Notes: generated from the sequence alone by a model not told the origin. DNA of 64,000 nucleotides from Candidatus Doudnabacteria bacterium (GCA_028286905.1 JAQBQP010000001.1:15114-79113), one strand, 5' to 3'; counted from the stretch's first letter, positions 2,504 through 52,828 are shown. Translations and numbers: made by a program.

Positions 2504-3919
2504 TTAGATATCGGGTATCGGAATTGACTGGTTCTTCTTGCGGCGATCTTCGCCATTTTCTCCATTGTTCGGCTGCTGCTGCCAGGCCTGATCGTTCCAC
2601 CCTCGGCCAGCCATCAGCCACCAGAAACCACGAATGCTCTTTGCGAGCAACGGCTCGAAAAGATACTGCGGCATTTCGGCGGGAGTCATCGTTCGATTTC
2701 CGATTGCGCTAACCACCTCGGTCATTATCGATACCTCGCGAGTCCGCAAATCGGGACTGAGGTGCACCAGTCCACCTGTTGGATCGCGACGCCGGCACCA
2801 ACGCATTGCGTAATGTGCCCAGGTCACCGAGTCGATCATCGGAAACAAGCAGACCATTCGGATATCCAAGCCGAGCCGTTCCAGATCTTCAACCCAGAGA
2901 AACATCAATTTCATCCAAGTCAGCCGAGCGAAGATCGTGCCGCGAATGTTGATCTCGGAAATCCAAATCGGCTTCCGACCGCAACGCTCCCAGTACTGTT
3001 GCGCAACTTGCACCATCCCAATCGGATTCGGACTTGGGGCGCGCGAGAACCGCTGATAGTACTTCCGTTCGGAATGGGAATAATAATCCAATCCCCAAAC
3101 CACGGTACCCTTCAGCTGGTGCTTTACGGCCCAGTCGATGAAATCCTCGCCGAAACCGAACTTTCGAAGATAGCCGTTATTCTGGCCGTTGCCGAGCACC
3201 AGGTCCATGAACAGAAACCGACGTTCATTCAGCTCCCATTCAAAACTCGGATTGTGCGGCGCCTGGTGATATTCACAGGTGTCGACCCACCAGATCTCTA
3301 CTTCAGGATCCACCCGTTGCAGATCTTCCGCGATCAGCAAAATCGACTTCACCACGATCTCCACCACTGGAAAGAGCTTGCTCTGCACTTCCAGTTTGGT
3401 TTTCTCCGGATCATCCCACCCCTTAACCGTCCAGAACGGCGGCCACTTCCCGAAATGCACTGACAAGAATGTGGTCGCAGTGGGCTCATTGAAAGGGGTG
3501 AACTTCTTCAGCCATGGGAATTCTTTTTTCAACGCCAACGCAAATTGGCGCGACGCTTCGACATAGCGCGGATCGGCAATTCCCAAAGTCATCCAACTTG
3601 GGTGACAAGTGTGATGGTTTAGGTCGATGATCGGATCCAAACCAAGCCGAAGAATTTCCAGCAGCTGTGCACGGACCGGTTCGAAATCAATCTCACCTTC
3701 CTTGCGTTCGCACTTCCACCACGGAATTCCGTAACGGATCAGCCGCATCCCCGCCGACTTTGCCAAAGCAAGGTCTTCGGGATACTTTGGCACAACCCCG
3801 TGCTTCACCGCCCAAGGACTTGGGCTGTGAAAGGTCAGGTCGGCGGTATCCACCTGCATTGGTTTGCGGTTGTGGTATAGCCGAGTGCTTTCGATCCCGG
3901 CGCCCAATGGTGCTCGCAT
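2504..3919 (-). CDS. glycoside hydrolase family 1-like (divergent beta-glucosidase/6-phospho-beta-glycosidase fold); high-GC gene
   Basis: 471 aa. GH1-like motifs RYGIPWWKCERKEGEIDF (cf. RFSISWSRI), FNEPTATT (cf. TLNEP acid/base) and WISEINI (cf. YITENG nucleophile). GGGGGAG SD lies 2 nt before the ATG. GC is about 57% against a ~38% backbone. Confidence 0.6.
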   Translation of the reverse strand: MRAPLGAGIESTRLYHNRKPMQVDTADLTFHSPSPWAVKHGVVPKYPEDLALAKSAGMRLIRYGIPWWKCERKEGEIDFEPVRAQLLEILRLGLDPIIDLNHHTCHPSWMTLGIADPRYVEASRQFALALKKEFPWLKKFTPFNEPTATTFLSVHFGKWPPFWTVKGWDDPEKTKLEVQSKLFPVVEIVVKSILLIAEDLQRVDPEVEIWWVDTCEYHQAPHNPSFEWELNERRFLFMDLVLGNGQNNGYLRKFGFGEDFIDWAVKHQLKGTVVWGLDYYSHSERKYYQRFSRAPSPNPIGMVQVAQQYWERCGRKPIWISEINIRGTIFARLTWMKLMFLWVEDLERLGLDIRMVCLFPMIDSVTWAHYAMRWCRRRDPTGGLVHLSPDLRTREVSIMTEVVSAIGNRTMTPAEMPQYLFEPLLAKSIRGFWWLMAGRGWNDQAWQQQPNNGENGEDRRKKNQSIPIPDI

Positions 3920-4032
3920 TGCTCCCCCTGATAAACGGTGTCTGTTGAAACATTTTCAGCCAAAAAAACTTCGACTGATTTTTGATAGTATCATTCGAAG
4001 CAATTATGGTCAATATGTAATTTTGTGCGAAT

Positions 4033-5025
4033 TTAAAACTGTTTTAAATCAAAGATCGCTAAACCGTATCTCCAGTACTTGGCCAAGTTTTTTGCAAAGG
4101 TTTCCCGAGCTTGATAAAAAAGCAGTAGGTCGCCTTCATAAACAAACCCTGCAGCATGGCCATTCTCACCTGAACCCCAAGAGTCTTGTTTTGGGTCCAT
4201 TATTGGACCGATACTTTCAAAAGGTCCTTCGGGCTTATCAGCAAGTGCAAAGAAAACCCGTTGCCTGGTACCCAATACACCTGTAGGCAAAAAACAAGTA
4301 GCATTTAACAAAATCTTTTTGTTTGGAAGCTCAATTAACTGTGGTCCTTCAATACCCCATTCATAGTCTGGATGATCATATTGGTTATGGTGCCAACTTA
4401 TATCCGCGTGATCTAAAATTTTCCCAGCACGTTCCCAAGGCCCAGCCCATTCATTAGTTTTGCTTTTTGCTAAATAAACATTCGGCTGAATAATAAACTT
4501 TCCTTGCCGGACAATCTCCGGCATCGCCGCATACACTAAATATTTTTGTCCTTGGATTACCGCCGGATGCGGATCGTATAAGCCAGCTTCATCTGTTTTG
4601 CGTCTGGAAAATAAGGTTGTGTTTCGCCAAACAAAAGTATCCCCGTCTGTCGAAGTTAAATATTCAATCGTGCCGCCTGGGCCCATAAATTCGGTCATAA
4701 TGAACATATGGAATAGTCCATTATCAAAAGTTACGCCAGGCGCAGCGACATGTTCTCCGCTAACTAAACCTAAAAATTTTACAGTACTATTTTCAATCCA
4801 AGGGCCTTCTGGTTTCAGCGCGGTGGCGTGCAATGGCTTCCACTTCTCTTCACGGACATTCCCCCCTGAACCAAATTTATGCCAAACCCGGCCATCAAAA
4901 ACCACACAAGGATCTTTAGTGTCCTCATAAAGTTTGGTTTGAATTAACGGTCCGATTTTCTTTTTGGCGATAATTTTTGTTTCGAGCATAGAAGCAATAT
5001 CTACGCTTAGTTTACCCCGATACAT
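4033..5025 (-). CDS. putative glycoside hydrolase, five-bladed beta-propeller type (GH43/GH130/DUF377-like)
   Basis: 330 aa. Composition and motifs (WGSGENGHA, repeated hydrophobic-Gly blades) resemble beta-propeller glycosidases. Adjacent to the GH1-like gene. Confidence 0.4.
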   Translation of the reverse strand: MYRGKLSVDIASMLETKIIAKKKIGPLIQTKLYEDTKDPCVVFDGRVWHKFGSGGNVREEKWKPLHATALKPEGPWIENSTVKFLGLVSGEHVAAPGVTFDNGLFHMFIMTEFMGPGGTIEYLTSTDGDTFVWRNTTLFSRRKTDEAGLYDPHPAVIQGQKYLVYAAMPEIVRQGKFIIQPNVYLAKSKTNEWAGPWERAGKILDHADISWHHNQYDHPDYEWGIEGPQLIELPNKKILLNATCFLPTGVLGTRQRVFFALADKPEGPFESIGPIMDPKQDSWGSGENGHAAGFVYEGDLLLFYQARETFAKNLAKYWRYGLAIFDLKQF

Positions 5026-5112
5026 TTGGCTTGGGAAGAACTTTTTCTTGTGGATACGCGAATAAATTAGACAAAATTAAACAGCAAAATTCGTTAAAAA
5101 TTACAGCCTAAG

Positions 5113-6724: not shown

Positions 6725-6780
6725 GTAATTAAATATTACGACTTAGTTCTTACTCATTATACCATGATTATTGAGCCGAT

Positions 6781-7170: not shown

Positions 7171-7177
7171 AAATATA

Positions 7178-7603: not shown

Positions 7604-7653
7604 AAATATATTATATCATTGAAACCTCGGTGAACCATAGCTTATTAACAGAG

Positions 7654-8205
7654 TTATACATCAGTCATATGATTCTGATTATAAACCAAAGTATCATAGC
7701 CCTGCATAACACGATCTTCTTTAGAGATCCCCAAAGCAGCTAAGAACTCAAACAACTTATCCTGTTCCTGCGTTTCAATATTTTCTTCAACTAGCTTTTC
7801 AACTTCTATAAAAGATCCCAGCCCTTCCACATCATCCAGACAAATCTCATAATCTTTATACTTAGATTTCTGTCGGGTCTTCAATACGTGTGCATACTCT
7901 TTATAACCCAACAAGTCTATAATATCGGCCATAACTGCCGAATCACTAACTGCGAGTTCTTTTTCTAAACAATCAAGCTCATTAGTAATACTGCGTTTCA
8001 AAGTAAACAAAGCTTTACCATTTTGTACTCTAATTCTTAAAACATTTCCCTGATGTGTCGCCAAACCAATATATTCGGGCAACATGTAAATTCTGTCAGA
8101 CTGCGCAATTGGTTCGTTGAAAACACAACCCAATGCTTTTATAGCCTTCATTGTTTTATTTCGATCTTGAAGCCTTGCTTTAACTTCTATTTCTCTCATG
8201 ATCAC
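7654..8205 (-). CDS. CYTH-domain protein (CyaB-like class IV adenylyl cyclase / triphosphate tunnel metalloenzyme)
   Basis: 183 aa. N-terminal EIEVKARL (ExExK tunnel motif) and later acidic motifs typical of CYTH. Confidence 0.65.
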   Translation of the reverse strand: MIMREIEVKARLQDRNKTMKAIKALGCVFNEPIAQSDRIYMLPEYIGLATHQGNVLRIRVQNGKALFTLKRSITNELDCLEKELAVSDSAVMADIIDLLGYKEYAHVLKTRQKSKYKDYEICLDDVEGLGSFIEVEKLVEENIETQEQDKLFEFLAALGISKEDRVMQGYDTLVYNQNHMTDV

Positions 8206-8270
8206 AGAATAACAAAAAAACGCCCTTTGAGCGATTTTTTGTTCTGAATATGAAGGTTCTTTGGCCTGGT

Positions 8271-8945
8271 CTAATTATAATAGATTATTTTCTTGCAATT
8301 TTTCGCTCCACAATTGCAAATAAATTTTTGAGGTGTTTTGGTACGGCTAGAGAAATCTGCAGTAAGCTCTTCTTCTGCTTTAATATCCTTTTTAGCCACC
8401 ATTATAAAATTATTCACTATCTTACAGTTGGCTGAACAAGAGTGATTTATAAAATCTGATGCATCCAATTCTGATTCTTTTGTTTCCGCCAAATAAAAAC
8501 CTGGATAAAGCTCTAAAGCATAATTAAAAGCAATGCTCTTTGGTAAAGTTTTAATCTCTTTTTTCGTTATAACACGCCCTCCCCAGACTGCCACAACGGA
8601 GCTTTTTTTGATTGTTTGAGCAGCAAAAAGTCCTAAGCCTTGGATCGAGCTGAATCTAGTTTTCGCATAATGGTGAACATACCCATGGACCCGGGGCTTG
8701 CGAGTAACTTGTCTAAGTATTTTATTCAAATTCATAAATTTCTGGACTTTTATATGTTTAAAAGATTTACTCCGTCTTTCAAAATGTGTACCCTTTCTTT
8801 TCCCTAATAAAACTTTATGGTCTTTGATCAACACCACTCCAACACCGACCTGAGGTCTATTTACTAAATCCATAGAAATGGTACCTAATAATCTTAAAAA
8901 ACAATTATCAATCCATTTTATCAAAGCATAACATAGGTCGCTCAA
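8271..8945 (-). CDS. SET-domain protein (putative protein lysine methyltransferase)
   Basis: 224 aa. GLGLFA (GxG), INHSCSANC (NHSCxPN), ELTADF (ELxxDY-like) and post-SET CNCGAKNCKK cysteine cluster. Confidence 0.7.
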   Translation of the reverse strand: MSDLCYALIKWIDNCFLRLLGTISMDLVNRPQVGVGVVLIKDHKVLLGKRKGTHFERRSKSFKHIKVQKFMNLNKILRQVTRKPRVHGYVHHYAKTRFSSIQGLGLFAAQTIKKSSVVAVWGGRVITKKEIKTLPKSIAFNYALELYPGFYLAETKESELDASDFINHSCSANCKIVNNFIMVAKKDIKAEEELTADFSSRTKTPQKFICNCGAKNCKKIIYYN

Positions 8946-9835
8946 AAATTATTTTTATTATTTAACCCTGCGATACTGGGCAATGCCGCTGCGACAATAA
9001 TCAATAGACCGCCTACTACTACACTAACTGTGAGCGATTCATTAAATATCCAAATACCAAAAATTATACTGAACACTATCTCCAACAAACCCAATAACGC
9101 ACCAATACTAGCATCAATGTATTTAAAACCTGCAATAACTAACCAGAATCCTAGCAAAGAAGCCACACTATAACATAGCTGCCAAAACCAGGGCATTGAA
9201 AAACTTAGGCTGATTTGACGTTCTTTAATTACCAACGAAACTATTAAGTTAGTAACGAGAATTATTCCCCAGCTCAAACAGACCACATACAGTGGCGAAT
9301 AATCGCCAGTGAGCTTTTTTGAAAATGCAATTTCGCCGCCACTAGCAATACCATTCAAAACAGCCATCGCTGCCGCGAAAGCAATAAAGTGAGAAATAGA
9401 AAAGGAAAAAATTAAATACATTCCTATTACAGCAAGGACTGCAGACCAGGATTTAATTGCAGTAAACTTTTCTTTAAGAAAGACAGCTCCGATTAAATTC
9501 ATTGTTAAAAACATCGAGACGAAAAATAGAAGTGAGGCCGTACCAATATCCATATGGTTAAAAGCATAAAACAATGGCGCCTGTGTTAGAGATGTAAAAA
9601 CTAAGAAGACAGCTACCCATTTTCTATCTTCGGGTTTTATTTCAACTATTTCTTTACGAATAAGTACAATTGGTGCAAGCAGAACTAAAATAATTAAAGC
9701 CCTGGTCCAACCTTGAAAGAAGCTATCCATTGAAGGACCAATCAAGCGCGACCACACCCCATAACTTCCAAACATCAATGCGGAAAGTAAAACTAGAAGG
9801 TTGCCGATATTTTTAGGCGATTTTTCCATATACAA
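8942..9835 (-). CDS. DMT-superfamily (EamA-like) transporter
   Basis: 297 aa. About 10 TM helices in two repeated halves. Confidence 0.55.
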   Translation of the reverse strand: MYMEKSPKNIGNLLVLLSALMFGSYGVWSRLIGPSMDSFFQGWTRALIILVLLAPIVLIRKEIVEIKPEDRKWVAVFLVFTSLTQAPLFYAFNHMDIGTASLLFFVSMFLTMNLIGAVFLKEKFTAIKSWSAVLAVIGMYLIFSFSISHFIAFAAAMAVLNGIASGGEIAFSKKLTGDYSPLYVVCLSWGIILVTNLIVSLVIKERQISLSFSMPWFWQLCYSVASLLGFWLVIAGFKYIDASIGALLGLLEIVFSIIFGIWIFNESLTVSVVVGGLLIIVAAALPSIAGLNNKNNF

Positions 9836-9958
9836 AGCATAACAGAACTAGCCGAAAGGTTCTAACCACGCATCAGGGATATAAAATCTTCCAGAATTTC
9901 TACCATAGTATGCATTATCTCTTTACTTGCAAAAGCCTTTCTTGTAAGCTATGCATCT

Positions 9959-10297
9959 ATGGAAATAATCAAATCACTAAACTTAGGCGTAGCGTTTTTT
10001 CTAGAGTTACTAATGCTAGCTGTTTTTGGGTATACAGGATTTAGCCTAACCCAAAACACTTATCTTAGAGCGGGCTTCGCAATTGCCATTCCACTCGTTG
10101 CCGTAATACTGTGGGCTTTCTTAGCTGCCCCTAATTCAGGAACAAGACTGCACCAACCTTGGCTGTTGCTATTTCAAGCAATCCTATTTGGTCTCGCCTT
10201 CTATAGCTTGTGTAAATTACACCATCCTAAATTTGCTCTTGCTTTGATCTTTGTTTGGATAATTAGCACGGCTCTTAGCCTGTTTTGGAATCAATAA
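9959..10297 (+). CDS. small membrane protein (YrdB/DUF2568-like)
   Basis: 112 aa, 4 hydrophobic helices. Confidence 0.3.
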   Translation: MEIIKSLNLGVAFFLELLMLAVFGYTGFSLTQNTYLRAGFAIAIPLVAVILWAFLAAPNSGTRLHQPWLLLFQAILFGLAFYSLCKLHHPKFALALIFVWIISTALSLFWNQ

Positions 10298-10439
10298 TTT
10301 CAGTGGCGGAAAAGTTTCGCCTCCCAAAAAACTTAGCTTGCACCAAACTCCCAGTCCTGATAAACTAGTTCAATGTAACTGGGATGATACCCTGCGAAAG
10401 CCGCAGAGATAAGCCCACAAGAACCCAAAGGAGGGTTAA

Positions 10440-10928
10440 GTGAAAACGCTCACGAATGAGCCGCAGGTCCGCACGCCTTCGGAGAAGATCATTCCGGCAA
10501 GTCGCGGAACGTTCTACAGCTATGCCTCCGTGTTCACAATCGCGCGGCCGCTGTTCTGCCTGATGGATTGCAAGGCGAACAAGGCCCGTCCGACAGAAGA
10601 CGCCGAGACGCTCGTCGAAGAAGTCGACATGGTCTTCAATTTCGGTGATCCGGTCCGGCTCCGCTCGCCGAATTCCAGGACGACCCAGATCGCACGCATC
10701 GAGATGAACGACTACGCCTTCGATGAAGTGCGTCAGAAGAAGGACGGCGAGGCTCTGGCCCAGATCGTCCGCCAGCTCATGGCGACCGAACAGGTCACCA
10801 CGGACATGGCACTCGAGCCCGGAATGGTTCTCGGGGTCGCGACGTCGAACAACAAGTTCGGCCTTCTCCGCATCGCCGCGCTGGCCGATTCATTCGTATC
10901 GATCGACGCCTGCCACATCCTCCTGTAA
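10440..10928 (+). CDS. hypothetical protein encoded in a high-GC island, GTG start
   Basis: 162 aa. AAGGAGGG SD lies 5 nt upstream of the GTG. GC is about 60%. Followed by a hairpin terminator. Confidence 0.5.
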   Translation: MKTLTNEPQVRTPSEKIIPASRGTFYSYASVFTIARPLFCLMDCKANKARPTEDAETLVEEVDMVFNFGDPVRLRSPNSRTTQIARIEMNDYAFDEVRQKKDGEALAQIVRQLMATEQVTTDMALEPGMVLGVATSNNKFGLLRIAALADSFVSIDACHILL

Positions 10929-10954
10929 CACGAGGGCGCGGTAAGGCAGCACAA

Positions 10955-10995
10955 AACGCCGTCAGAGGATCAAACCTCTGGCGGCGTTTCTCATA
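10955..10995 (+). terminator. rho-independent terminator of the high-GC 162-aa gene
   Basis: acgccgtcagagg-atcaaa-cctctggcggcgt stem, followed by ttctcatattc. Confidence 0.6.
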
Positions 10996-12036: not shown

Positions 12037-13974
12037 CTATTTTTTGGCTTGCTTTTTTCGTTTTTTTCTTCGCGGCACAACCCATAAAAACGAAGCTAAT
12101 AAGAGAAGCCCTATTAATAAAAGAAAGATGCGCAGAACGCATCTTTCTTTTATATCTATATTATCTTTCTGTAAGATTGTTGGAGCAGGAGAAGCAACAA
12201 TGACTGTAGCGATGGCAAGATCTTTTACTAAAATACCATTGGCTTGACCAGTTGCTATCGCTGTATTTGTAGTAGTCTTTAAAATCCTCGTAGTACAAGT
12301 GTAGTCCCAAGTCTCAGTAATACCGAGTCTCGAATCACTATTTTTATCACCAGTAACGTATTCGACCGGACTACATTTATCATCAGTGATGTTAACATTA
12401 CTCAGCGCGATTTTTCCAGGGTTGCTAATTTTTTGAACGTAAGTAATCATCCCTCCCCTTACTGGCAAAGTAAATGAGTTCGGAACATTTATAACATGAA
12501 TAATCGGTGTTATAACTATAGCTGGCATTCCGACCACAACCGTGGCGCTTGCAATATCTGTTGCAGAAATATTATTGGCCCAACCAGTCGCGACTGCAAC
12601 ATCAATGTTGGTTTTTGTAAGCCTAACGGAACAACGGTAAATCCATATTTCATTTATATCAAGTACGTCGTCAGAATTAATATCACCGGAAGTAAGATTG
12701 ATAGGCTTACAACTGTTACCAAGTATTGTAATATTGGTCACAGGAACCGTTCCAATATTACGTAACGTGTAAGTGAACGTCACTAAACCCGGGCCGCCAG
12801 GCAAGGCCAAAGGATTTGGAATTTTAATAATATCAATAACCGGTGGGGTCGGAACAACGACCGGAATAAATGGAACAACTGGTGGCGACTGTCCACCAGA
12901 ACCACCACCTCCTGATGAAGGAGGGACAATCAGCGGTGCGATGTCATCATTAATAACTATGCAGAACATCTGGCTGCCAGAAACCACATCGATCCGACCA
13001 GAAGCGTCACAATCTCCGGAAAATTCTTGAGTGTAGTTTACATCTGCAGTCTCTGTCACGGTGTACGATGCAGGTGCCGCAAAGGAATTGGTCTGGCCAG
13101 AAATGACTGACGAGCCATTTACGAACAGCGGAAAGTCAGCCACGACTTTGGTTCGACCATTATCATTGATCACTGTAGCAACGACATTGATCGATGCAGA
13201 TGGTGGTGGAGTGGGAGTTGGACTAGGCGAAGGTGTTGGAGTAGGCGTCGGTGAAGGGCTTGGAGCTGGAGGCGGAGGCGGCGCTGGGGCACTACATGAA
13301 GGCACGGTAATGGAGTTAGTATCAGAGGTTACCGCTTTGCCAAATGCCAGAGCTCTTCCTGTCCATATCGTGCCAGCACCCAACGTCACGGCCGCAGGAT
13401 CAATCACAGTTCCTATAAAAGTTGTTCCGGCACCTAGAGTTACCGCACCAGTCGGCGTCCAAAAAATATCACAAGCCGATGCTCCTCCGGCTAACGCAAT
13501 CGTTATACCAGCTGTAGAATTTAGTGCGCCAACGATCCTGAAGGTGTATGTCCCACTACCGCTAAGAGTGATCCCGGTTGTTATGGAAACAGCACCAGTA
13601 ATACAATACACTCCTGGAATTATTGGTTGAGATAAGGTGGCGAGATCAGTAGCAGCACCAAAAATAAAAGTACAAGTTTCAGCATTTAAGGCGCTCAAAG
13701 CAGTGCCCTGATCTGCTCCTGCCGCCGTATAGGGGTCAGAGGATCCATAATTCGTATGTGTACCAGAAGGTGCAATCGCAGGCGCAACGGTGAAACCGAC
13801 ATCTCCATTGATCGTGGTTGCTGACGTATTGGCGTAAGTACCAGTAAGCACGCCATAAGTTGCCGCTGCTCCCAAAGATGGAGTGGTGGCTGCAGCGTCG
13901 ACTTGTTGTGTACCAAGCCTAAGCACGAAAAAAACGACCAATAAAACCATCAGGATATTAGCAATTCTTTTCAT
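12037..13974 (-). CDS. cell-surface protein: N-terminal ice-binding-like (DUF3494) domain, Pro/Thr/Ser linker, two DUF11-type repeats, C-terminal TM anchor with basic tail
   Basis: 645 aa. LGAAATYGVLTGTYANTSATTINGDVGF resembles the DUF3494 start. PAPPPPPAPSPSPTPTPTPSPSPTPTPPPS linker. Two ~90-aa repeats with the N.TD.KC...GD.NSD..L...E.W.Y.C pattern (DUF11-like). C-terminal IFLLLIGLLLLASFLWVVPRRKKRKK. Confidence 0.55.
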   Translation of the reverse strand: MKRIANILMVLLVVFFVLRLGTQQVDAAATTPSLGAAATYGVLTGTYANTSATTINGDVGFTVAPAIAPSGTHTNYGSSDPYTAAGADQGTALSALNAETCTFIFGAATDLATLSQPIIPGVYCITGAVSITTGITLSGSGTYTFRIVGALNSTAGITIALAGGASACDIFWTPTGAVTLGAGTTFIGTVIDPAAVTLGAGTIWTGRALAFGKAVTSDTNSITVPSCSAPAPPPPPAPSPSPTPTPTPSPSPTPTPPPSASINVVATVINDNGRTKVVADFPLFVNGSSVISGQTNSFAAPASYTVTETADVNYTQEFSGDCDASGRIDVVSGSQMFCIVINDDIAPLIVPPSSGGGGSGGQSPPVVPFIPVVVPTPPVIDIIKIPNPLALPGGPGLVTFTYTLRNIGTVPVTNITILGNSCKPINLTSGDINSDDVLDINEIWIYRCSVRLTKTNIDVAVATGWANNISATDIASATVVVGMPAIVITPIIHVINVPNSFTLPVRGGMITYVQKISNPGKIALSNVNITDDKCSPVEYVTGDKNSDSRLGITETWDYTCTTRILKTTTNTAIATGQANGILVKDLAIATVIVASPAPTILQKDNIDIKERCVLRIFLLLIGLLLLASFLWVVPRRKKRKKQAKK

Positions 13975-18758: not shown

Positions 18759-18989
18759 ATGACGCTAGTTGAACGACTCCAGGAAGCAGAAATGCTGGCA
18801 ACATTTATGGACTATTACGCTCCACCGCAATGGAGCAAGCGTTTTGCCGAGCTCACGGGAAACCGCGGACGCAACATGATTATCACCCTCGCCCATTGGA
18901 AAGAAGATCTCGAAAAACTGCGCGCCAATGTCAAAGCTGAGGCCGAGGCAATGAGCGCGGAGGATCACACCGAGACCGAAGCCGCCTAA
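18759..18989 (+). CDS. small hypothetical protein, moderately GC-enriched (~52%). The true start may be the internal ATG at 18789, which has an AGGAAG SD.
   Basis: 76-aa ORF, followed by a strong terminator at 19043..19077. Confidence 0.3.
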   Translation: MTLVERLQEAEMLATFMDYYAPPQWSKRFAELTGNRGRNMIITLAHWKEDLEKLRANVKAEAEAMSAEDHTETEAA

Positions 18990-19042
18990 CCTAGAAACTT
19001 CATTCGCAACTACTTTCACCCACTTCACCCGGAAACACCAAC

Positions 19043-19077
19043 AGCCGCTTTCTACCAGAGAGCGGCTGTGTTTTTTA
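19043..19077 (+). terminator. rho-independent terminator
   Basis: cagccgct-ttctaccagag-agcggctg followed by tgtttttt. Confidence 0.65.
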
Positions 19078-19127
19078 CGCTCCAATACTCAGCTCACTTC
19101 TGCCTGTTCGGAACCCTTCGTCAAACC

Positions 19128-19162: not shown

Positions 19163-19238
<76 letters not shown>

Positions 19239-19261
19239 GCAATGCTCGAATGCTGAAATCT

Positions 19262-19338
19262 TGGTGCGCCCGGCAGGGGTCGAACCTGCAACCTTGTGGT
19301 CCGAAGCCACACACTCTATCCAGTTGAGCTACGGGCGC
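19262..19338 (-). tRNA. tRNA-Arg (anticodon UCG)
   Basis: Hand-folded. GCGCCCG acceptor, TGTGG-CTTCGGA-CCACA anticodon arm, GCAGG-TTCGACC-CCTGC T-arm, CCA encoded. Confidence 0.9.
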
Positions 19339-27076: not shown

Positions 27077-30000
27077 TTATTGTTTGATTGAAAAGCTTCC
27101 TGTTGGGAAGTTGTAAACCAAAGCACCGCTACGAGCAGATAGTGTTCCACCACCAGCTACGTCAGTCCATAGGAAGTTTGTCTGATCAACAGATGTTGAT
27201 ACAGAAACTGTAGCACCAGCAACAACTGTTGCGTTTACTACGCCGTATAGGCTGAATACTTGTGATGTACTAGCAGTGATCAAGAATTCTGGGCTAAATA
27301 CACAATCAACACGAGTGGTTACACCGCTCGCAGTTGTTGCTGTACATGTAGTACCAGAGATTGTTGTTGTACCACTTGCAATGCGGGCAGAAGTGACAGC
27401 CGGACCAACCGACACACCAGAACCACCAACGTTAAAGCGGATTGTACCAACGGAGATGTTACCAGCTGCATCAGCAGTCACTGTAACTTCACCAATCTTG
27501 TTTTCTGCACCTAGAATCAAACCAGACTTTTGAGCTGTATCAACAGACAAAGTAGGTTTAGAACCAACTAGAGTCTGAGTAGGAGCTGCAACGTTTGGAG
27601 TGATAACTGTTGTTGTACCGCCAGCAACGTACTTAACGTAAGTTAAAGCAACGCTGTTAGTTGTAGCAGAAGCTACACCGGTAACACCAACTGGGCTGTA
27701 AGAAACAGTAACTGGAACATTTACACCACCGGAACCGTTAGGAACAGCAATGTTTAAACCAGTTATTGTTGCTACGCCACCTACTACTGGAGCTGTTACG
27801 CCACCAACTTTTACGTTAGTAACACCAGAACCAGTTACTGTGAATCTCAACTCATTGATATTAGCAGTTCCGCTAGTAGCCAAGAAGTTAAAGGAAGCCA
27901 CAGATGCATCAGTAACTCCACTTGCAGTACCGGCAGCAATATATTGTGCCTGTGTTGAAGCAGAAGCTACGATTGTAGGAGGGTTTGTTACAGTTGCTAC
28001 AGCTACAGTCATTGTTTGACCAGTAATAGGAAGAGATGTTGAAGTCTGATTACTATTTTGACCAATTGAAGTAACTGTTAGTGTAGTAATTTCTGTACCA
28101 GTTGTTGCAGATCCCAAGTCGCCAAAGATATCTACTGTACCGCTTGAGCTAACTGGGATTGTAACATTAGGAGAGAAAGAGTTTGAAGCTGTAGGTGAAC
28201 CAACCGTGTTACCAACTTGTGTGCCATTTACGAACACTTTCAAGTTTGTAAGATTAGTTAACGCTGCAGATCCAGAGATACCTACAGTCATAGATGTAAG
28301 ACGGATAGGTTCAGAATTGCTAGATTGCAATACGAATGAACCAAGTTTTACATTTTGATTGTTAGGTGAAACGTTTTGGCTTACGAAACCATTGCTTGCA
28401 GCAATAGTTAACGCAGCTGTACCAACAGTCAAACTGCTAGCTGCAGTTGCTGCAGGAACGTTGTATAGAGTTCCAGAGTAACGACCTTGCGCTGTGTTAG
28501 TAGTGCCAGTGATACTAGCAGTTACTGTACCAGCTGTGTAGTTTAAGTTGTTTGCAGTGATCAAATCAGCACGTACTTCAAGAGTTGAAGATTGACCGGC
28601 TGGGATAATCATTGACGAACCTAAGTTATACACCAAAGCTGTTGAACCGTTGAAATTCTGTGAAGAACCAACCTGGGCGCCATTTACGAACAATGTAACA
28701 TTGTTCAAAGTAGTGTCAGGGTGAGAGATTGTGTAAGCCAAACCTGATGCAGTTGTACCAGCGTAGGTAGCAGACAAAGTCAAAGATGTGTTAGAAGCGA
28801 TTGAAGAAATAGTGTAAGTTACACCACCAATAACAATCTTATCTAAAGCAACGTATGAGCTGAAGTTTGTACCTGTACCAGTTACTGTTGCGCTACCATT
28901 GGTAACAGCAACAGTACCTGTAGGAGCTGTAACTGGAGTTACCAATCCACCAGTGATGGAAGGAGCTAGGGTTAAGCTATTAACTTGCATATCTTCGCCA
29001 TAAGCTTGTACTTTGTAACGAGCAATTGGAGTGTTTGTAGCACCGCCAGTTACTGTTGTTACAACGCCGAAGCTTGGGTCAGAAGAAATTGTAAGAGAAC
29101 CATTACCGATAGTAATTGTACCACCGGAGTTTGCTGTAAATTGAGCACCACCAACGTTAGTTGGAGTGATGTTTACGTTAAACTGAGAATCAGTAACCAT
29201 CAAATCAGCTGCATTTTGCAAGGTGAATTGAACTGTGCGAGTTGCACCAGTTATGAAGTCAGCACGTACATCTAAAGTATGAGAACCAGTATTCATAGTA
29301 GCTGGGGTAGAACCCAAGTCAAATGAAACATAGCTAGAACCATTGATGGAAACTAAGCCAGATGCAGAAGCAACTTTGTTGCCATCTAGATATAGACCAT
29401 AGTTACCCAATGCGTTTGTAGGAGCTGATCCTACTTCACGTAGGGCAAGGCTCTTCAACCATACTACTCTAGTACCAACAGTGATAGGCGCAGACCATAC
29501 TGTCTGAGTTGTGCTACCAGCGTTAATAGAAGAGTTACCAATTGTATTTGTTCCTACTGTTACAGCTGCTGTTGAAGCACCTGAAACTGTAGAAATGTTA
29601 CCGCTTACTGGAACACCAGTAACAGCAAGAGTACCACTCATAGCAGATACCAATTGTACACCTACAGTTTGTCCGGAAATTCCAGAAACCTGAGATACAG
29701 AAGCAATATCAGCACGAACAGAAACGTTAGCTGAACCATTTACTGTAAACAAACCATTTGGGTTTGAGAAAGAAATGTTGCTACCTGTTGTTACAGAAGC
29801 AGCATCAGTTAATCTTGTGTTGCCTTGGTATAGGTATACGTTGTTCAAAGCTGAATCAGAAGAAACTCCGATTCTCTTCAAAGAAACTTGAGTAACAGCG
29901 CCGTTACCGTAGAAGGTAAAGTGACCTAAGTCAGCTGTTGCTTGTCCTGCTACCAAAGTGCTGCCAGCTGGCATATCTGAGCTTGCGCTTACAGATAATG

Positions 30001-30697
30001 AGCTACCAGTTACTGGAGGAATTGTTACACCACCCGCAGCGCCTGTTGGGTTCAATTGACCCATTACGCGCGCTTGCATGATACCAGAGCTCATAGGAAC
30101 TGCGATATCAGCAGCGTTTGCAGGAACTGCTTTTGCGAATGAGTAACCCCATGTGTTGAATACTGATTCAGATGGGATTCCCATTTTTCCACTTGAAGTG
30201 ATCAAGTAGATAGTACCACTTTGGTTAACCAAAGCGCCTGTTGGATGTTGTTGTGAAGAATTGGACAAGATTGTAGCAGAAGGCATGAATGATGTATCAC
30301 CAACCATGACGTTGCTCAATTTGTAACCAAGGCCGTTAAATACAGCCATTGATGTAATACCAGAACGTTGACCATTGTTGATCACGTAGATAGTACCCAT
30401 ATCATTGATAAGGGAACCGTCCATAGGAGGCACGAAGCTTCCTACTGGTAAAGCCAAATCTTCAGCAGATGCTGGCACTACTTGGCTCCATGAATTAAAT
30501 CCATAAGACAAGAACGCGCCACCTGAGGTGTAACCTCTGCGAACGCCGCTTGGATCGATGAAATAAACTGTTCCATTTACGGAAACGTTTGTTCCAACGG
30601 TGTGTACAGTAGCAGTTGCGAAAGACGCAAAGCTAGCAAGTACCAAAGCGGAGGAAGAAGCTACAGCAAAGGCTTTCTTTGCTAAAGTGTTAGACAT
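27077..30697 (-). CDS. giant secreted surface protein (1206 aa). Three tandem ~60-aa N-terminal repeats, followed by a ~950-aa Thr/Ser/Gly/Val/Ala-rich beta-rich region.
   Basis: Signal peptide. Repeats GTVYFIDPSGVRRGYTSGGAFLSYGF, GTIYVINNGQRSGITSMAVFNGLGY and GTIYLITSSGKMGIPSESVFNTWGY. No C-terminal anchor. Confidence 0.5.
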   Translation of the reverse strand: MSNTLAKKAFAVASSSALVLASFASFATATVHTVGTNVSVNGTVYFIDPSGVRRGYTSGGAFLSYGFNSWSQVVPASAEDLALPVGSFVPPMDGSLINDMGTIYVINNGQRSGITSMAVFNGLGYKLSNVMVGDTSFMPSATILSNSSQQHPTGALVNQSGTIYLITSSGKMGIPSESVFNTWGYSFAKAVPANAADIAVPMSSGIMQARVMGQLNPTGAAGGVTIPPVTGSSLSVSASSDMPAGSTLVAGQATADLGHFTFYGNGAVTQVSLKRIGVSSDSALNNVYLYQGNTRLTDAASVTTGSNISFSNPNGLFTVNGSANVSVRADIASVSQVSGISGQTVGVQLVSAMSGTLAVTGVPVSGNISTVSGASTAAVTVGTNTIGNSSINAGSTTQTVWSAPITVGTRVVWLKSLALREVGSAPTNALGNYGLYLDGNKVASASGLVSINGSSYVSFDLGSTPATMNTGSHTLDVRADFITGATRTVQFTLQNAADLMVTDSQFNVNITPTNVGGAQFTANSGGTITIGNGSLTISSDPSFGVVTTVTGGATNTPIARYKVQAYGEDMQVNSLTLAPSITGGLVTPVTAPTGTVAVTNGSATVTGTGTNFSSYVALDKIVIGGVTYTISSIASNTSLTLSATYAGTTASGLAYTISHPDTTLNNVTLFVNGAQVGSSQNFNGSTALVYNLGSSMIIPAGQSSTLEVRADLITANNLNYTAGTVTASITGTTNTAQGRYSGTLYNVPAATAASSLTVGTAALTIAASNGFVSQNVSPNNQNVKLGSFVLQSSNSEPIRLTSMTVGISGSAALTNLTNLKVFVNGTQVGNTVGSPTASNSFSPNVTIPVSSSGTVDIFGDLGSATTGTEITTLTVTSIGQNSNQTSTSLPITGQTMTVAVATVTNPPTIVASASTQAQYIAAGTASGVTDASVASFNFLATSGTANINELRFTVTGSGVTNVKVGGVTAPVVGGVATITGLNIAVPNGSGGVNVPVTVSYSPVGVTGVASATTNSVALTYVKYVAGGTTTVITPNVAAPTQTLVGSKPTLSVDTAQKSGLILGAENKIGEVTVTADAAGNISVGTIRFNVGGSGVSVGPAVTSARIASGTTTISGTTCTATTASGVTTRVDCVFSPEFLITASTSQVFSLYGVVNATVVAGATVSVSTSVDQTNFLWTDVAGGGTLSARSGALVYNFPTGSFSIKQ

Positions 30698-33682: not shown

Positions 33683-34175
33683 GGTTTTATTGATTTAATA
33701 TACAGGGTTAATTTTAAAATAAAACCGCCGAAATGTCAACGTAGCCCAATCGATCTAATTATTCCCCTTCCCTTCTAACTCTTATACTTTTTATAGCTTA
33801 AATATAAATTAAAAAAGATTCGTACTAAGAGCCTAGTAAATATAGCTCCGTACAAATCTTTTGGGCTGCCCCCAAACCGCATAAAGCGAGCTTAGGAGCC
33901 ATGGGTATTTTTGTTTGATTTAGGAGTGTACAGGAAATTGGTGGAAATGTCAAGGCTATAGGCGAACAGTGAATTATTTTACCTGCCCAATTCAGACAAA
34001 TTTTGTTTATAAAAAGAAAGACGCCCACCCTGACTAGAAGTCGGGGCGGGCGTTGATCAGCACTGGGCTGATCGGGCTCTCATGAATCATCCTACGCGGG
34101 ATCCCTGCAACGCGCGCGAGTGCGCATGTGTGAGCTTCCCTCCGAGTCGGTCGCGATGCGCGCGACCGATGATGA

Positions 34176-34505
34176 GGTAGACGGAAACGGCTTTGCGGGC
34201 CGTCTCAGAAGAAACCGTGGGACGACGACGCGCCGCGGAGCTACGAGGCTTCGGAGCTGTTCGCGGCGCGCGAGCCGGTGGCGACCGAGGTCGACGACGA
34301 GCCGATGATGCCGCGCGAGGTGAAGGTCATGGAATTACAGGACACTCTCCGGGTGCTGCGTCCGTGTCGGTCGATGGCTTTGGCCGGCGCGTGGGAACGG
34401 TTCATGATGGTTTCCTCCATGGAATGGTCATCAGAGCTTAGACGGTTTGTCCTTGCTCGACGGTCTCACACCTCATTGAGATGTGTTATCGTTTCGACAT
34501 CATAG
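34176..34505 (+). pseudogene. probable decayed gene remnant inside a 68% GC insert (no start codon or SD; possible frameshift near 34200)
   Basis: The frame with near-100% GC3 is open for ~110 codons (…ASELFAAREPVATEVDDEPMMPREVKVMELQDTLRVLRP…) but lacks an initiation signal. An upstream GC3-rich frame (34120..) is offset by one. An antisense 55-codon ORF with SD shares the same third positions. Confidence 0.25.
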
Positions 34506-34556
34506 CACATCCATAGAAAAAGTCAAGCACTTTACCTAAATTCAACAAAAAACCGC

Positions 34557-34582
34557 TTAAATAAGCGGTTTTCCCATATATA
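34557..34582. terminator. bidirectional terminator downstream of groEL
   Basis: aaaaaaccgctt-aaat-aagcggtttt. Confidence 0.7.
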
Positions 34583-34623
34583 TTCACAATAAGTTTCAGG
34601 TATAGGACGGACCTTAGTACTAA

Positions 34624-36291
<1,668 letters not shown>

Positions 36292-36595: not shown

Positions 36596-36772
36596 ATTGT
36601 CCTAATTAAATTAATTAATCGCCTGGCTATTTGGGCCGAGTTTATACTCCATTTTAGCACATTCCCTCAGACATAGGTCAACTTGCATTTTTCCAATGGT
36701 TATGCGATTATGGCCTATGTTCGCAGTACTGTTTTCCCAAACACCTGCGCAAGTGCAGGAGGAAAAGAACAG

Positions 36773-37093
36773 ATGCCGCCAAGGACTGCAAGGGCACGCC
36801 GCGTTCACTTCGAAAAGATCGGACACTCCCGATCGGGTCCGAACTACGCCGGCTGGGTGATCGGCGCAGCATTGCTGCTGCTGGTATTCTTCGCAATGCG
36901 GACCGCGGGCGCCAACAACGAAGCCAAGATCAAGGCAGCGGCTGCGCACGCCGATTCGATTCGGGTGGCGGACTCCACCGCGAAGGCAGTGGCTGCCGAC
37001 TCCGTCAAGAAGGTCGATTCGACCGCCAAGGCCAACGCTGCAGCCAAGCAGCAGGCCAAGCCGACGAAGCACGCCGCCAAGAAGCGCCGCTAG
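36773..37093 (+). CDS. small membrane-anchored Ala/Lys-rich protein encoded in a high-GC island
   Basis: 106 aa from ATG 36773 (GGAGG SD lies 10 nt upstream). The track's TTG start at 36683 is unlikely. One TM (WVIGAALLLLVFFAM), then AKAAAA/KK-rich tail. GC about 63%. Confidence 0.45.
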   Translation: MPPRTARARRVHFEKIGHSRSGPNYAGWVIGAALLLLVFFAMRTAGANNEAKIKAAAAHADSIRVADSTAKAVAADSVKKVDSTAKANAAAKQQAKPTKHAAKKRR

Positions 37094-37118
37094 TGGCTGT
37101 TCAATCAACGTACAACGC

Positions 37119-37160
37119 GAGAGCGCCGAACTGTCTTACAGTCCGGCGCTCTTTCTATTT
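37119..37160 (+). terminator. terminator of the high-GC 106-aa gene
   Basis: gagcgccg-(14 nt loop)-cggcgctc followed by tttctattt. Confidence 0.5.
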
Positions 37161-41993: not shown

Positions 41994-42006
41994 AATTTCC
42001 TTTAAG

Positions 42007-45854: not shown

Positions 45855-45893
45855 GCTAATATTATACCCGTTAATAGCTGAATAGCTAAATTT

Positions 45894-47057: not shown

Positions 47058-47060
47058 ATA

Positions 47061-49578: not shown

Positions 49579-49596
49579 TTTGTTACCTTAACAATT

Positions 49597-50595: not shown

Positions 50596-50658
50596 TTATT
50601 TTTGTTTTATTTTCATTAAGGCCTGTTTATAAGGATATTATACCATACTCAGTACGAT

Positions 50659-51987
50659 TTATGACCTCAACAGTTTTTTAACCTGCTTCACTAAATCTTT
50701 AGCTTTTAATTCGACTTGCTTTCTGGTTTTCAAGTCCCGTACAGTGACTTGCCCTTTTTTCTTTTCATTTTCGCCAAACAATATAGCGTAAGGGATAGAT
50801 TTAGCTTCCGCAAAAGTAAACTGCTTTTTCATATCCGCTTGCTGATAGTAAACTTCGGAGTTAATCCCAGCGGCACGAAGTTCGGTAACAATATTTATGT
50901 AGTCTGCTTCCAATTCTTTATTCATATTTAAGATCAGAACATCAACGACATTCTGCTTATCAACCAAATTCAATTCAAGCATTGCGCTAAACAAACGATC
51001 GATACCGATTGAGATACCAACTGCAGGGATATCCTTGCCAGTAAATAAATTAATTAATTTATCATAACGTCCCCCGCCAGCTACAGAACTAAAGCTTCCT
51101 TCTTTGCTCTTTTCTAAAATTGCCGCTTCAAAAATAGTTGAAGTATAATAATCCATCCCTCTAGCTAAGGCCAAATCAATTTCCAGATTTTTAACACCCA
51201 TCTCCTTAAGGACCATAAAAACTTTATTCAACTCTTCAAAACCTTGCTGGCCTTGCGGCTGCTTCAAAATATATTTATTCATAAATACTTTCAACGCACC
51301 GACATCAGGAACTTTTGTTGAGGTTAATCTGATCAATCCTTCTGCTTCATTGACAGTCATGCCAATTTTTTCTTGCAGTTCAGCAGAAACAGCCTTGGCG
51401 CCAATCTTATCTATTTTATCGATTGCCCGAATCGCCACAACAATTTTATCAGCAGGAACTTTGGCAGTCAGCATTATTGCATTCAATATTTTGCGATTGC
51501 TAATTTTAATCTTAAATTTCTTAATACCGAGTTCTCTTATAATTTGCTCGGCGATGGCGATACATTCGGCATCTGCAATACCTACCTCTGCTCCAACAAC
51601 ATCAGCATCACATTGATAAAATTCCCGGTACCGGCCACGTTGGGTATTTTCTGCACGCCAAACCGGCGCAATCTGGTAGCGTTTAAAAAACTTTGGTAAT
51701 TCATTTGAATACTGTGCGACAACGCGTGCCAAAGGAACAGTAAGGTCATAGCGCATTGCAACTTTACGATCGCCATTATCTTTAAAGCGATACATTAACA
51801 TTTCGCCTTCTTCGCCATACTTTCCGGTTAAAACATCTTCATGTTCAAGTACTGGAGTATCAAGCGGCTCAAAGCCAAAACGTTCAAATACTAGTTTGAT
51901 CTTTTCAAGCATTCGGGCACGAACGATCTGATCTTTCGGTAGATAATCTCTAAAGCCCTTTAAATTGCGCGGTTCTATTAATTTCAT
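50659..51987 (-). CDS. hisS: histidine--tRNA ligase
   Basis: 442 aa. Class II motifs and N-terminal RNLKGFRDYLP. Confidence 0.9.
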   Translation of the reverse strand: MKLIEPRNLKGFRDYLPKDQIVRARMLEKIKLVFERFGFEPLDTPVLEHEDVLTGKYGEEGEMLMYRFKDNGDRKVAMRYDLTVPLARVVAQYSNELPKFFKRYQIAPVWRAENTQRGRYREFYQCDADVVGAEVGIADAECIAIAEQIIRELGIKKFKIKISNRKILNAIMLTAKVPADKIVVAIRAIDKIDKIGAKAVSAELQEKIGMTVNEAEGLIRLTSTKVPDVGALKVFMNKYILKQPQGQQGFEELNKVFMVLKEMGVKNLEIDLALARGMDYYTSTIFEAAILEKSKEGSFSSVAGGGRYDKLINLFTGKDIPAVGISIGIDRLFSAMLELNLVDKQNVVDVLILNMNKELEADYINIVTELRAAGINSEVYYQQADMKKQFTFAEAKSIPYAILFGENEKKKGQVTVRDLKTRKQVELKAKDLVKQVKKLLRS

Positions 51988-52003
51988 ATGGTTATTTTAG
52001 CAT

Positions 52004-52048
52004 AAAAAGAAAAGAACCTCACTACACACCTGGAAGGTGTGAGCGAGG
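52004..52048 (-). terminator. terminator of the high-GC lipoprotein gene
   Basis: cctcactacacacc-tggaa-ggtgtgagcgagg hairpin, followed in minus orientation by ttcttttcttttt. Confidence 0.55.
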
Positions 52049-52066
52049 CTCTCTGCTTAGAACGTC

Positions 52067-52828
52067 TTAGTGCTTGATGCGGAGGTGCAGGGTGAACGGA
52101 CAGGTGCCGACACCGACGATCCGAACTCCATGAACCTCGTCAGATTCCAACGTGCCCCACGGTGACTCGCCCCAACTGATTTTGTTGGAGCTGAGGAATG
52201 TGATGTCGTGGAAGATCGTATCGCCCGGCGCACGTACAGTCGTGATCTGGGTTCCCCCGTAGGTTCCCGAAACATTCCGGGCCGTGAACGAGCCAGACTT
52301 GCTCTGGGCGTACAAGGTGTTGCCGAGGATCACATTTGGATTCGGGCTCATCCAGGCGGTATCGTTTGGAATAACGATGTCCGCACAACTGAAGTCACCG
52401 GAGTTCAAACGGAGCGTCGTACTCACCGTCGTGGTAACCACCGGGTTCGAGGATCGGGGATCGCCGGTCGCGGTGATCAAATAGGTAATGATCGACGGCG
52501 TGTTCAAGTTGAAGTCCGCCGGCGGAGCATTTGCCTGATTGACGACGATGCTGTCACAGCCGAAGACCTTCACGGAAATCGGCAGACTAGCGTCCCGACC
52601 CAGAGCATTAGACGGTGTCCGGTCAACCTTGCAGCTGAGGGCATTAGATGCCGCCAGCAGAATGGTCGTAGTCCGGTTCAGCGTCTCGAACTTCGGGGGT
52701 GGCGGAATGACGCCGAGCGTGGGGCTAGCAGGTGGAATGGGGTTCCCGGGCTGGGTAGTTTCGCCTCCCCCTCCACAAGAAACCACCAAGAGCGCTGAAG
52801 CCGCCATGGTGCAAAAAGACTTTCTCAT
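52067..52828 (-). CDS. lipoprotein, hypothetical, encoded in a high-GC island
   Basis: 253 aa from ATG 52828 (AAGGAGGG SD lies 4 nt upstream; the track's start at 52861 lacks an SD). Signal MRKSFCTMAASALLVVSC with lipobox. GC about 57%. The plus-strand ORFs 52208..52798 and others are antisense shadows. Confidence 0.5.
   Translation of the reverse strand: MRKSFCTMAASALLVVSCGGGGETTQPGNPIPPASPTLGVIPPPPKFETLNRTTTILLAASNALSCKVDRTPSNALGRDASLPISVKVFGCDSIVVNQANAPPADFNLNTPSIITYLITATGDPRSSNPVVTTTVSTTLRLNSGDFSCADIVIPNDTAWMSPNPNVILGNTLYAQSKSGSFTARNVSGTYGGTQITTVRAPGDTIFHDITFLSSNKISWGESPWGTLESDEVHGVRIVGVGTCPFTLHLRIKH

Follow-up and report, generated by a model that had tools for sequence, protein, structure and literature searches.

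GC-rich single-gene islets in a low-GC Candidatus Doudnabacteria genome: anatomy, relatives and possible origin

Six GC-rich units in a low-GC genome

The DNA considered here is a 64,000-nucleotide stretch of a Candidatus Doudnabacteria bacterium (GCA_028286905.1 JAQBQP010000001.1:15114-79113), a member of the candidate phyla radiation (CPR); the whole of this stretch is referred to as the window. Exact look-ups find three proteins of the window under the locus tags JWO40_14, JWO40_28 and JWO40_58 of this genome, on a contig of 248.6 kb, and find them also in a Logan assembly of SRR13312974. Its GC content is 40.8%, and 39.6% once six GC-rich islands and the tRNA genes have been masked. Each of these islands reads as a complete monocistronic transcription unit seated in an intergenic slot, usually with a Shine-Dalgarno (SD) sequence of its own (Table 1).

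A sliding GC profile rises to sharp peaks at all six places that an initial annotation of this DNA had named, and the segments prove real on recomputation: when each island is scored against backbone windows of equal length, five have z-scores of about 6 and the sixth (18759-18989) is weak, as it had been graded before. The five strong islands (1, 2, 4, 5 and 6) stand above all backbone windows of their length; the GC content of island 3 is below the backbone maximum. (Part of the bump at 18.6-19.4 kb, moreover, is due to the genes for tRNA-Lys and tRNA-Arg at 19163-19338, which adjoin island 3.) The GC percentages first assigned to the islands are within 1-7 points of the recomputed ones; in island 4, the core is the only part that reaches 63-72% GC.

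The excess of GC sits at silent sites. GC content at fourfold-degenerate sites (GC4) is 0.64-0.92 in the six island genes, compared with 0.10-0.51 (median ~0.38) in 26 backbone genes. Amino acid composition is therefore not the cause of the excess, and the silent positions of the island codons have a composition that sets them apart from the backbone as foreign.

A seventh bump, at 12.8-13.9 kb, was considered as a further island and ruled out. It lies inside the gene of a 645-residue Ice-binding-like/DUF7507/SpaA-like surface protein (12037-13974) that has a Pro/Thr/Ala linker and is anchored by a C-terminal transmembrane (TM) segment; with GC at second codon positions (GC2) of 0.52 and GC4 of 0.36, it arises from the amino acid composition of the Pro/Thr/Ala-rich linker alone. 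The lowest GC4 values of the backbone are those of the genes for ribosomal protein L32 (33506-33682; 0.15) and for a 1206-residue protein (27077-30697; 0.10, with GC2 of 0.55). These two proteins, which are presumably highly expressed, shun the G/C-ending codons, and it is exactly those codons that the island genes use.

Table 1. Transcription units and base composition of the six islands (coordinates count from the first nucleotide of the window; signals of minus-strand units run from high to low coordinate)
Island	Unit	Strand	Promoter	SD	ORF	Terminator	Segment scored	GC (%)	z	GC4
1	2448-4013	-	promoter-like TTGACC-17-(TG)TACTAT, 4013 to 3985		3919 to 2504, 471 aa	2478 to 2448	2504-3919	54.0	5.8	0.65
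2	10335-10995	+		AAGGAGGG	10440-10928, 162 aa, GTG start	15-bp hairpin, ~10955-10993	10390-10995	59.2	6.0	0.82
3	18759-19085	+		none	18759-18989, 76 aa	hairpin, ~19041-19076, then T-run	18759-18989	53.7	3.1	0.64 (36 sites)
4	34020-34526	-	TTGACT-16-(TG)TATGAT, 34526 to 34499	GGAGGA, 34418 to 34413	34405 to 34241, 54 aa	34052 to 34022	34030-34510	60.9	6.0	0.92
5	36740-37160	+		GCAGGAGGAAAA	36773-37093, 106 aa	hairpin, ~37118-37150	36740-37160	61.0	5.9	0.72
6	52010-52861	-		AAGGAGGG	52828 to 52067, 253 aa	imperfect hairpin and T-run, ~52050 to 52015	52010-52861	57.2	5.9	0.70

Anatomy of the units

The SD sites that the initial annotation quoted are present, and the hairpin terminators that it described can be seen for all six islands, with differing degrees of support: a simple scan flags that of island 1 only (its stem is 14 bp long), folds show those of islands 2, 4 and 5, and those of islands 3 and 6 are made out by eye. 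(The terminators of islands 2, 5 and 6 escape the scan on account of bulged stems or interrupted T-runs.) The open reading frame (ORF) of island 3, which has no SD, is possibly leaderless; its 76-residue protein is helical and has a database record for this metagenome-assembled genome (MAG) only, JWO40_28.

Island 4 had been thought to lack an intact ORF, and on this point the annotation has to be corrected: the minus strand carries a near-consensus promoter, an SD sequence, a small ORF and a terminator. The unit starts directly past the terminator of groEL and specifies a hydrophilic 54-residue peptide; its untranslated regions (UTRs) are ~90 nt (5') and ~190 nt (3', GC-rich) long. The idea that island 4 might be a known structured RNA was discarded, the Rfam comparison giving only five tRNAs and chance matches, with no family match to any island (whole window at the gathering score; 33700-34800 at E<=1). 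The idea that it might be a non-coding RNA of another kind was likewise discarded, because the window and two sister genomes (L006 and L007, below) do not share a conserved core, and because what is conserved is an SD-led small ORF in which insertions and deletions stay in frame. Relative to shuffled sequences, island 4 folds with a z-score of -4.8, and the other two islands that were folded have z-scores of -6.3 and -1.9 (the latter for island 5). This signal comes largely from the terminator hairpins, and it does not settle whether the islands were imported or have been kept GC-rich in place.

The products had been characterized as mostly surface proteins. This holds for two of the six, the 253-residue lipoprotein of island 6 (lipobox LVVS-C) and the single-pass membrane protein of island 5, with its Ala/Lys-rich tail; the others are without a signal peptide. 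Integron cassettes were rejected as a description of the islands: there is no attC-like repeat or motif, and the units are scattered rather than arrayed, each with its own promoter.

Could the islands be an artefact, either of high-GC reads assembled into chimeric contigs or of GC-rich amino acid composition? MAG contigs can be chimeric, and Ala, Gly, Pro, Arg, Thr and Ser are abundant in several of the island products. Nevertheless, such an explanation is very improbable. On a 29-kb contig, an independent Logan assembly of SRR13312974 joins islands 1 and 2 to the backbone in the same way; the backbone genes on either side of the islands are intact, with the islands fitting exactly between them; dozens of independent assemblies show this pattern too; and GC4 is strongly raised, which it is not in the amino acid-driven bump described above. 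The original view of the islands as integrated, self-contained transcription units with their own expression signals thus stands.

Counterparts in sister genomes

Islands 4, 5 and 6 can be compared with their counterparts in related genomes. L006 (GCA_054927495.1), which carries a homologue of the island 6 lipoprotein, is syntenic with the window between 22.8 and 39 kb at 67-83% nucleotide identity, and has GC-rich islets in the slots of island 5 (upstream of groES; 57-60% GC) and island 4 (downstream of groEL; 54-59% GC). The cores of islands 4 and 5 cannot be aligned with L006 at the DNA level; the flanking promoter and SD regions align. (The distance involved is considerable: fourfold-site identity between the two backbones is 0.40 versus 0.26 by chance, which is near saturation.)

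A scan with an L32-centred alignment provides 80 further loci with mixed database labels (Doudnabacteria, Patescibacteria group, 'uncultured Candidatus Saccharibacteria'). The neighbouring 292-residue protein (p292), used as a query, had no match in the genome collection, and exact look-ups of GroES and L32 had none either. Most of the loci that are long enough to show gene order have the order p292-groES-groEL-...-rpmF-nusB, rpmF being the gene of L32. The closest subclade consists of L006, L007 and a group of five: L008, L013, L014, L015 and L018 (the L008 group). The GC content of loci L007-L086 ranges from 34 to 60% (L068, 0.34; L032, 0.60), and GC-rich relatives able to act as donors exist; many of these loci are labelled 'uncultured Candidatus Saccharibacteria' in public databases despite their Doudnabacteria synteny.

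Throughout the closest subclade, the slot upstream of rpmF contains a promoter, an SD sequence and a hydrophilic ORF of 25-71 residues. The counterparts of island 4 in L006 and L007 have the same promoter and SD and a small ORF, located between groEL and rpmF, and within the L008 group both termini of the peptide and the UTRs are conserved, with insertions and deletions in frame. In more distant genomes (the Doudnabacteria loci examined), the same slot is occupied by other small membrane or secreted protein genes.

A non-coding stretch of ~240 nt (33683-33925, minus strand) separates the island 4 terminator from the start of rpmF. Identity to L006 and L007 is 76-83%, and all five members of the L008 group show partial conservation; the stretch has a promoter-like site of its own (TTGACA-17-TACACT, 33953 to 33925), and could be a leader of rpmF or a regulatory RNA.

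The L006 counterpart of island 5 shares its strand and SD and is built alike, with a TM helix that leads into a basic tail rich in Pro, Ala and Lys. Positional counterparts also exist in L015 and L018, and the island 5 protein has weak pairwise similarity to those of L006 and L015. This type of gene is confined to the closest subclade; elsewhere, the slot between p292 and groES is occupied by a methyltransferase gene of normal GC content. In the L008 group groESL does not lie between the p292 gene and rpmF, and the island 5- and island 4-type units of these five loci (at ~8000-9800 of 20 kb) flank a normal-GC gene for a NERD-like membrane protein.

For island 6, a word-indexed search finds the lipoprotein itself only, and an exhaustive HMMER search adds three proteins: P0110, the closest (40% identity), from the Doudnabacteria MAG NVSMB66; a fragment, P0111; and P0112, a weak match (E 1e-4) to a repeat domain of an 822-residue protein on a 68% GC contig. 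The divergence of the lipoprotein is extreme: its identity is 39%, versus 90% for GroEL. The L006 lipoprotein gene (52-54% GC) is not in the slot that it has in the window: it is located next to tRNA-Gly, and adjoins homologues of the window genes 56316-57098 and 57100-57555, which are 3-5 kb from the lipoprotein gene of the window. L006 has an extra block of ~2.3 kb after this tRNA-Gly (8470-10820, with genes for a 155-residue protein, a 243-residue protein and the lipoprotein), of which only the lipoprotein gene is GC-rich.

Among 1,421 ORFs of 68 loci, strong GC4 elevation is found in 5-9% of non-conserved genes versus less than 1% of conserved ones. One syntenic pair of GC-rich genes for Thr/Gly/Ser-rich proteins (L008 19629-20162 and L014 13412-13987; 177 and 191 residues, 77% identity) has GC4 of 0.70, versus 0.14-0.36 in neighbouring orthologues.

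The comparison with sister genomes, which had been proposed as a way of recognizing strain-specific islands, gives a mixed picture. Islands 4 and 5 have counterparts in the same slots and island 6 has a homologue of ~40% identity in one sister genome; for islands 1 and 2, the protein and metagenome searches give none above 40-42%. The relatives that were found for islands 2, 4, 5 and 6 appear to be accessory genes of other low-GC CPR-type genomes, where they form islets of the same kind, sometimes in the same slot. Best homologues in low-GC CPR relatives had been named as evidence that the islands would be ancestral genes of biased amino acid composition; such homologues are found in part, and the GC4 values contradict the supposed amino acid bias.

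The 162-residue protein family of island 2

The 162-residue product of island 2 belongs to no Pfam family, and its AlphaFold model is of moderate quality (pLDDT 65). Three homologues (34-39% identity) are found by protein search, and a metagenome scan with the family alignment yields 32 loci. In ~22 of 29 loci the gene exceeds its 30-45% GC flanks by 10-24 points, forming a sharp-edged block of ~500 bp with a gene GC of 0.51-0.62 and GC4 of 0.6-0.83. The family (of the 'MxCKANK...IDACHIL' type) is thus a family-wide GC islet, undescribed as far as searches show, and its recurrence in this form is the most interesting lead to come out of the analysis.

Elevation over the surrounding DNA is not universal. 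In L109-111 (apparently one lineage) the gene is at parity with DNA of ~31% GC and has GC4 of 0.22, and the L004 member has GC4 of 0.29. L102 is at parity at the other extreme, in a contig of 56-60% GC with housekeeping genes (those for FtsH, RecG, TyrS, ComF and PilM). The sign is reversed in L096, where a family gene of 44% GC (228-716) is embedded in a 61% GC contig, which suggests that a low-GC genome passed it to a high-GC one. The existence of members with backbone-like GC content means that the protein can do without high GC; the genomes that house the family differ widely in composition. The parity in L102 and the reversal in L096 are what one would expect if the gene moves between genomes.

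Two clades are informative about the history of the high GC content. In one, formed by the window, L088, L090 and L101, GC4 is 0.81-0.83 despite protein identities of only ~40%. In the other, the family gene is syntenic with a Peptidase_S66 gene with which it co-diverges (62-95% versus 77-92% identity); fourfold sites are near saturation in both genes, and GC4 is 0.49-0.59 in the family gene versus 0.20-0.44 in its Peptidase_S66 neighbour.

Homologues are found beside a gene for a GNAT acetyltransferase in L089, L091, L099, L100, L109, L110 and L112, and beside the Peptidase_S66 (LD-carboxypeptidase) gene in L005, L103-L107, L116 and L117; these neighbours have ordinary backbone GC content. 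GNAT and LD-carboxypeptidase are the two folds on which the proteins of microcin-C immunity, MccE and MccF, are built.

The GH1-like gene of island 1 and the question of a host

The 471-residue product of island 1 matches PF00232 below the gathering score (17.3 versus 22.6 bits) and over residues 45-182 only; most of its homologues do carry PF00232. In an alignment with six homologues the catalytic glutamates, E144 as acid/base (FNEP) and E321 as nucleophile (ISEIN; motif (S/T)E(I/T)N), are invariant. The protein is accordingly a probable, divergent GH1-like glycosidase of clan GH-A. Protein search yields 102 homologues, of which the best are 34-35% identical. The named ones are mostly from Micrococcales (Arthrobacter, Naasia, Glaciihabitans), with Lysobacter and Deinococcus in addition, and the two top homologues that were examined are in contigs of 64-67% GC. 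Island 1 appears to be the sole island with such cross-phylum, high-GC affinities, which point weakly to an actinobacterial origin.

The initial annotation had gone further, proposing as plausible that the islands stem from repeated uptake of genes from a high-GC actinobacterial host (or another high-GC donor), with products that decorate the surface of the symbiont. This premise belongs to the Saccharibacteria. The present genome is of another CPR lineage, the Doudnabacteria, for which no host is known; a host among the Actinobacteria is thus assumed by analogy with another lineage. What can be said for host capture comes mainly from island 1: the prevalence of Actinomycetota among the named homologues of its product, and the actinobacterial-type neighbours (Rv2525c-like, GLF) that its two top homologues have in their high-GC contigs. 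The locus-tag prefix of a Glaciihabitans MAG (JWQ43) also resembles that of the present genome (JWO40), and the two may come from the same study; and GC4 near 0.8 fits donors of at least ~60% GC.

However, no match to an actinobacterial protein exceeds 35% identity, and the other five islands have no actinobacterial homologue (the large-database search covered the GH1-like, 162-residue and lipoprotein products). The lipoprotein, the TM protein and the small ORF have their relatives in Doudnabacteria; the gene lineages of these three islands are resident there, and envelope proteins account for a minority of the products. Published surveys of horizontal gene transfer (HGT) find few transfers from Actinomycetota to Patescibacteria; in groundwater Patescibacteria, most of the detected HGT is within the Patescibacteria (PMC12455944). 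As a general explanation, capture from a host is thus improbable. It is true, at best, for one of the six islands, and the derivation of the islands from a host is weakly supported for the GH1-like gene and unsupported for the rest.

Import, decay or maintenance

Acquisition from a GC-richer source, the broader claim within the initial annotation, fares better than the host did. The silent-site composition of the islands is foreign, and acquisition is the simplest account of islands 1 and 2, for which protein searches give nothing above 40% identity (nothing above 40-42% when the metagenome scan is included); both seem, in the protein searches made, to be particular to this genome. The best general reading, which we hold at about an even chance of being right, is that autonomous units have repeatedly been imported or replaced, their source being a pool of ~60% GC which overlaps with the accessory genes of the CPR. 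On this account, the genes would come from, or would recently have been replaced from, a pool with GC4 near 0.8 (as in genomes of ~60% GC); they would have reached permissive or variable slots through transformation and recombination; and they would now be decaying toward the 40% GC of the backbone (amelioration). The donor's identity is a matter of inference only, and the pool is not demonstrably that of an actinobacterial host.

The alternative to be weighed most seriously against import is that the units are native, fast-evolving CPR genes kept GC-rich by a locus-specific force, either selection on the transcript or GC-biased gene conversion at accessory loci prone to recombination. (Candidate targets of such selection are transcript stability or structure, RNase resistance, slow translation, and a deliberate use of rare G/C-ending codons.) The units would then hold 55-62% GC beyond the saturation of backbone silent sites and against a genome-wide AT pressure. 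This is a possible reading, and we consider it rather unlikely.

The two readings meet in a simple model of decay. An F81 approximation converts backbone fourfold identity into the fraction of the compositional deviation that each lineage should retain. For the S66-linked clade of the 162-residue family, retention is 0.42-0.49 and the back-calculated ancestral GC4 is 0.74-0.83. This estimate coincides with the GC4 of the 'fresh' islands of the family (the window, L088, L090 and L101). This clade is well explained by one import at GC4 near 0.8 and passive amelioration thereafter, which is a point for import and against maintenance.

Islands 4-6 behave differently. Retention between the window and L006 is 0.43, and passive inheritance of the window genes would require an ancestral GC4 of 1.13 (lipoprotein), 1.18 (TM gene) and 1.65 (small ORF); the L006 copies require 0.83-0.87. 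Values above 1 are impossible, and islands 4-6 of the window are therefore not passive leftovers of an ancestor shared with L006. Either they are younger than the split from L006 (acquired or replaced since) or they are actively kept GC-rich. Import or replacement is favoured here because it explains the divergence of the proteins, their accessory distribution and the ameliorated members of the families. (Parsimony polarisation of weak/strong (W/S) substitutions was tried and abandoned, since its result reflects base composition alone, the outgroups being saturated.)

Maintenance can claim the persistence of units like islands 4 and 5 in the same slot and on the same strand, with the same SD and related architecture, GC-rich in all sisters despite near-saturated fourfold sites. 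It can also claim the extent of the GC-rich zone, which in several genomes is that of the transcript, UTRs included; the folding of the island 4 RNA and the conservation of its UTRs in the L008 group; the uniform GC4 of the window, L088, L090 and L101 at ~40% protein identity; and the elevated GC4 of the syntenic L008/L014 pair. On the other side are the backbone-like members of the 162-residue family (L109-111 and L004), in which high GC is evidently not needed for function, and the folding z-scores, which reflect mainly terminator hairpins and are unimpressive for island 5. As regards gene conversion, its effects on GC3 in bacteria, according to what Lassalle et al. are said to have reported in 2015, are far below the shifts of 30-50 points seen here.

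Several observations weigh against import and decay as proposed. The F81 model is crude, and some genes supply only 36-150 sites. The searches gave a donor for none of the islands, the best identity anywhere being 35-42%, and most sampled members of the 162-residue family are in low-GC DNA, rather than in a GC-rich 'home' lineage. The islands have no flanking direct repeats, attC-like sites or shared boundary motif (the only shared 15-mer serves as promoter for two backbone genes, holA and hisS), no integrase-like ORF adjoins them, and only island 3 is close to tRNA genes. The edges of islands 4 and 5 match the transcription unit exactly in both sisters, and the promoter/SD DNA that adjoins these islands is ordinary backbone, 75-80% identical; replacement through the flanks by DNA of a GC-rich relative should have left GC-rich tracts there, and the sharpness of the edges therefore tells against it. 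The N-termini of the island 4 peptides, finally, are weakly similar across the window, L006 and L007, a likeness that would fit fast vertical evolution and replacement equally.

Other sources were looked for as well. IMG/VR has no relatives of the 162-residue, lipoprotein and 76-residue products that would indicate a phage or plasmid-like origin; as to an origin in defence systems, PADLOC gives no match, and comparison with PHROG gives only one marginal match (E 0.006), to the low-complexity 106-residue protein.

Implications

Compositional islands are routinely read as the result of recent HGT, and in episymbiotic CPR bacteria also as a clue to the host. In the present case the anomaly is real, and for most of the islands the inference of a host breaks down. 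Many low-GC genomes of CPR type harbour islets formed by the same GC-rich lineages of genes, and the 162-residue family recurs in this way in more than 20 independent contigs. If import and decay is the correct reading, an unsampled pool of ~60% GC feeds the accessory genomes of the CPR, and the decay provides a rough clock of import. If maintenance is correct, bacteria have an unusual, gene-specific mode of base composition, 'foreign-looking' composition in these genomes is no sign of HGT, and GC-based calls of HGT in these lineages are undermined. As to function, the lipoprotein, the basic-tailed membrane protein, the strongly promoted 54-residue peptide and the 162-residue protein are, on either reading, candidates for lineage-specific roles in the envelope or in interaction, in organisms that so far resist cultivation.

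Comparison with known systems

Island 4 bears some resemblance to the GC-rich RNA genes of AT-rich genomes (tRNA, RNase P RNA, tmRNA, 6S RNA), in being strongly promoted and bounded by a terminator and in the conservation of its UTRs. It differs from them in matching no Rfam family, in its SD-led small ORF, and in a core that is not conserved even in close relatives.

Transfer of genes from host to episymbiont in the Saccharibacteria (TM7) that live on Actinomyces or Schaalia is comparable as regards a reduced CPR genome, GC-rich, foreign-looking genes, and competence and type IV pilus genes (the window has T2SSE/PilB and PilM-like ORFs). The present genome is of a different CPR class, however, and actinobacterial affinity is confined to its GH1-like gene, at low identity.

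Compositionally atypical acquired genes and their amelioration are the concept of Lawrence and Ochman. The islands share with acquired islets of that kind the discontinuity at silent sites, the accessory distribution and the fit to decay toward the composition of the recipient. They differ in size, each being one gene of 0.3-1.5 kb and not an island of several genes, in that the hallmarks of integrase, tRNA site and repeats are not found, and in that sister genomes hold GC-rich units in the same slots. Acquired and orphan genes are also reportedly AT-rich, as a rule, relative to their genome (a finding attributed to Daubin and Ochman, 2004), whereas the islets described here are GC-rich.

The units also resemble the phage 'morons' (said to have been described by Juhala and Hendrix in 2000) and the 'minimal mobile elements' of naturally transformable Neisseria (reportedly Saunders and Snyder, 2002), which are single genes with their own promoter and terminator. 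The present units are not in a prophage, and their exchange by homology of the flanks is inferred. With morons and minimal mobile elements they have in common the possession of their own signals, conserved flanks, a composition that differs from that of the surrounding DNA, and slots of variable cargo: they are single-gene units, and the cargo varies both upstream of rpmF and in the slot between p292 and groES.

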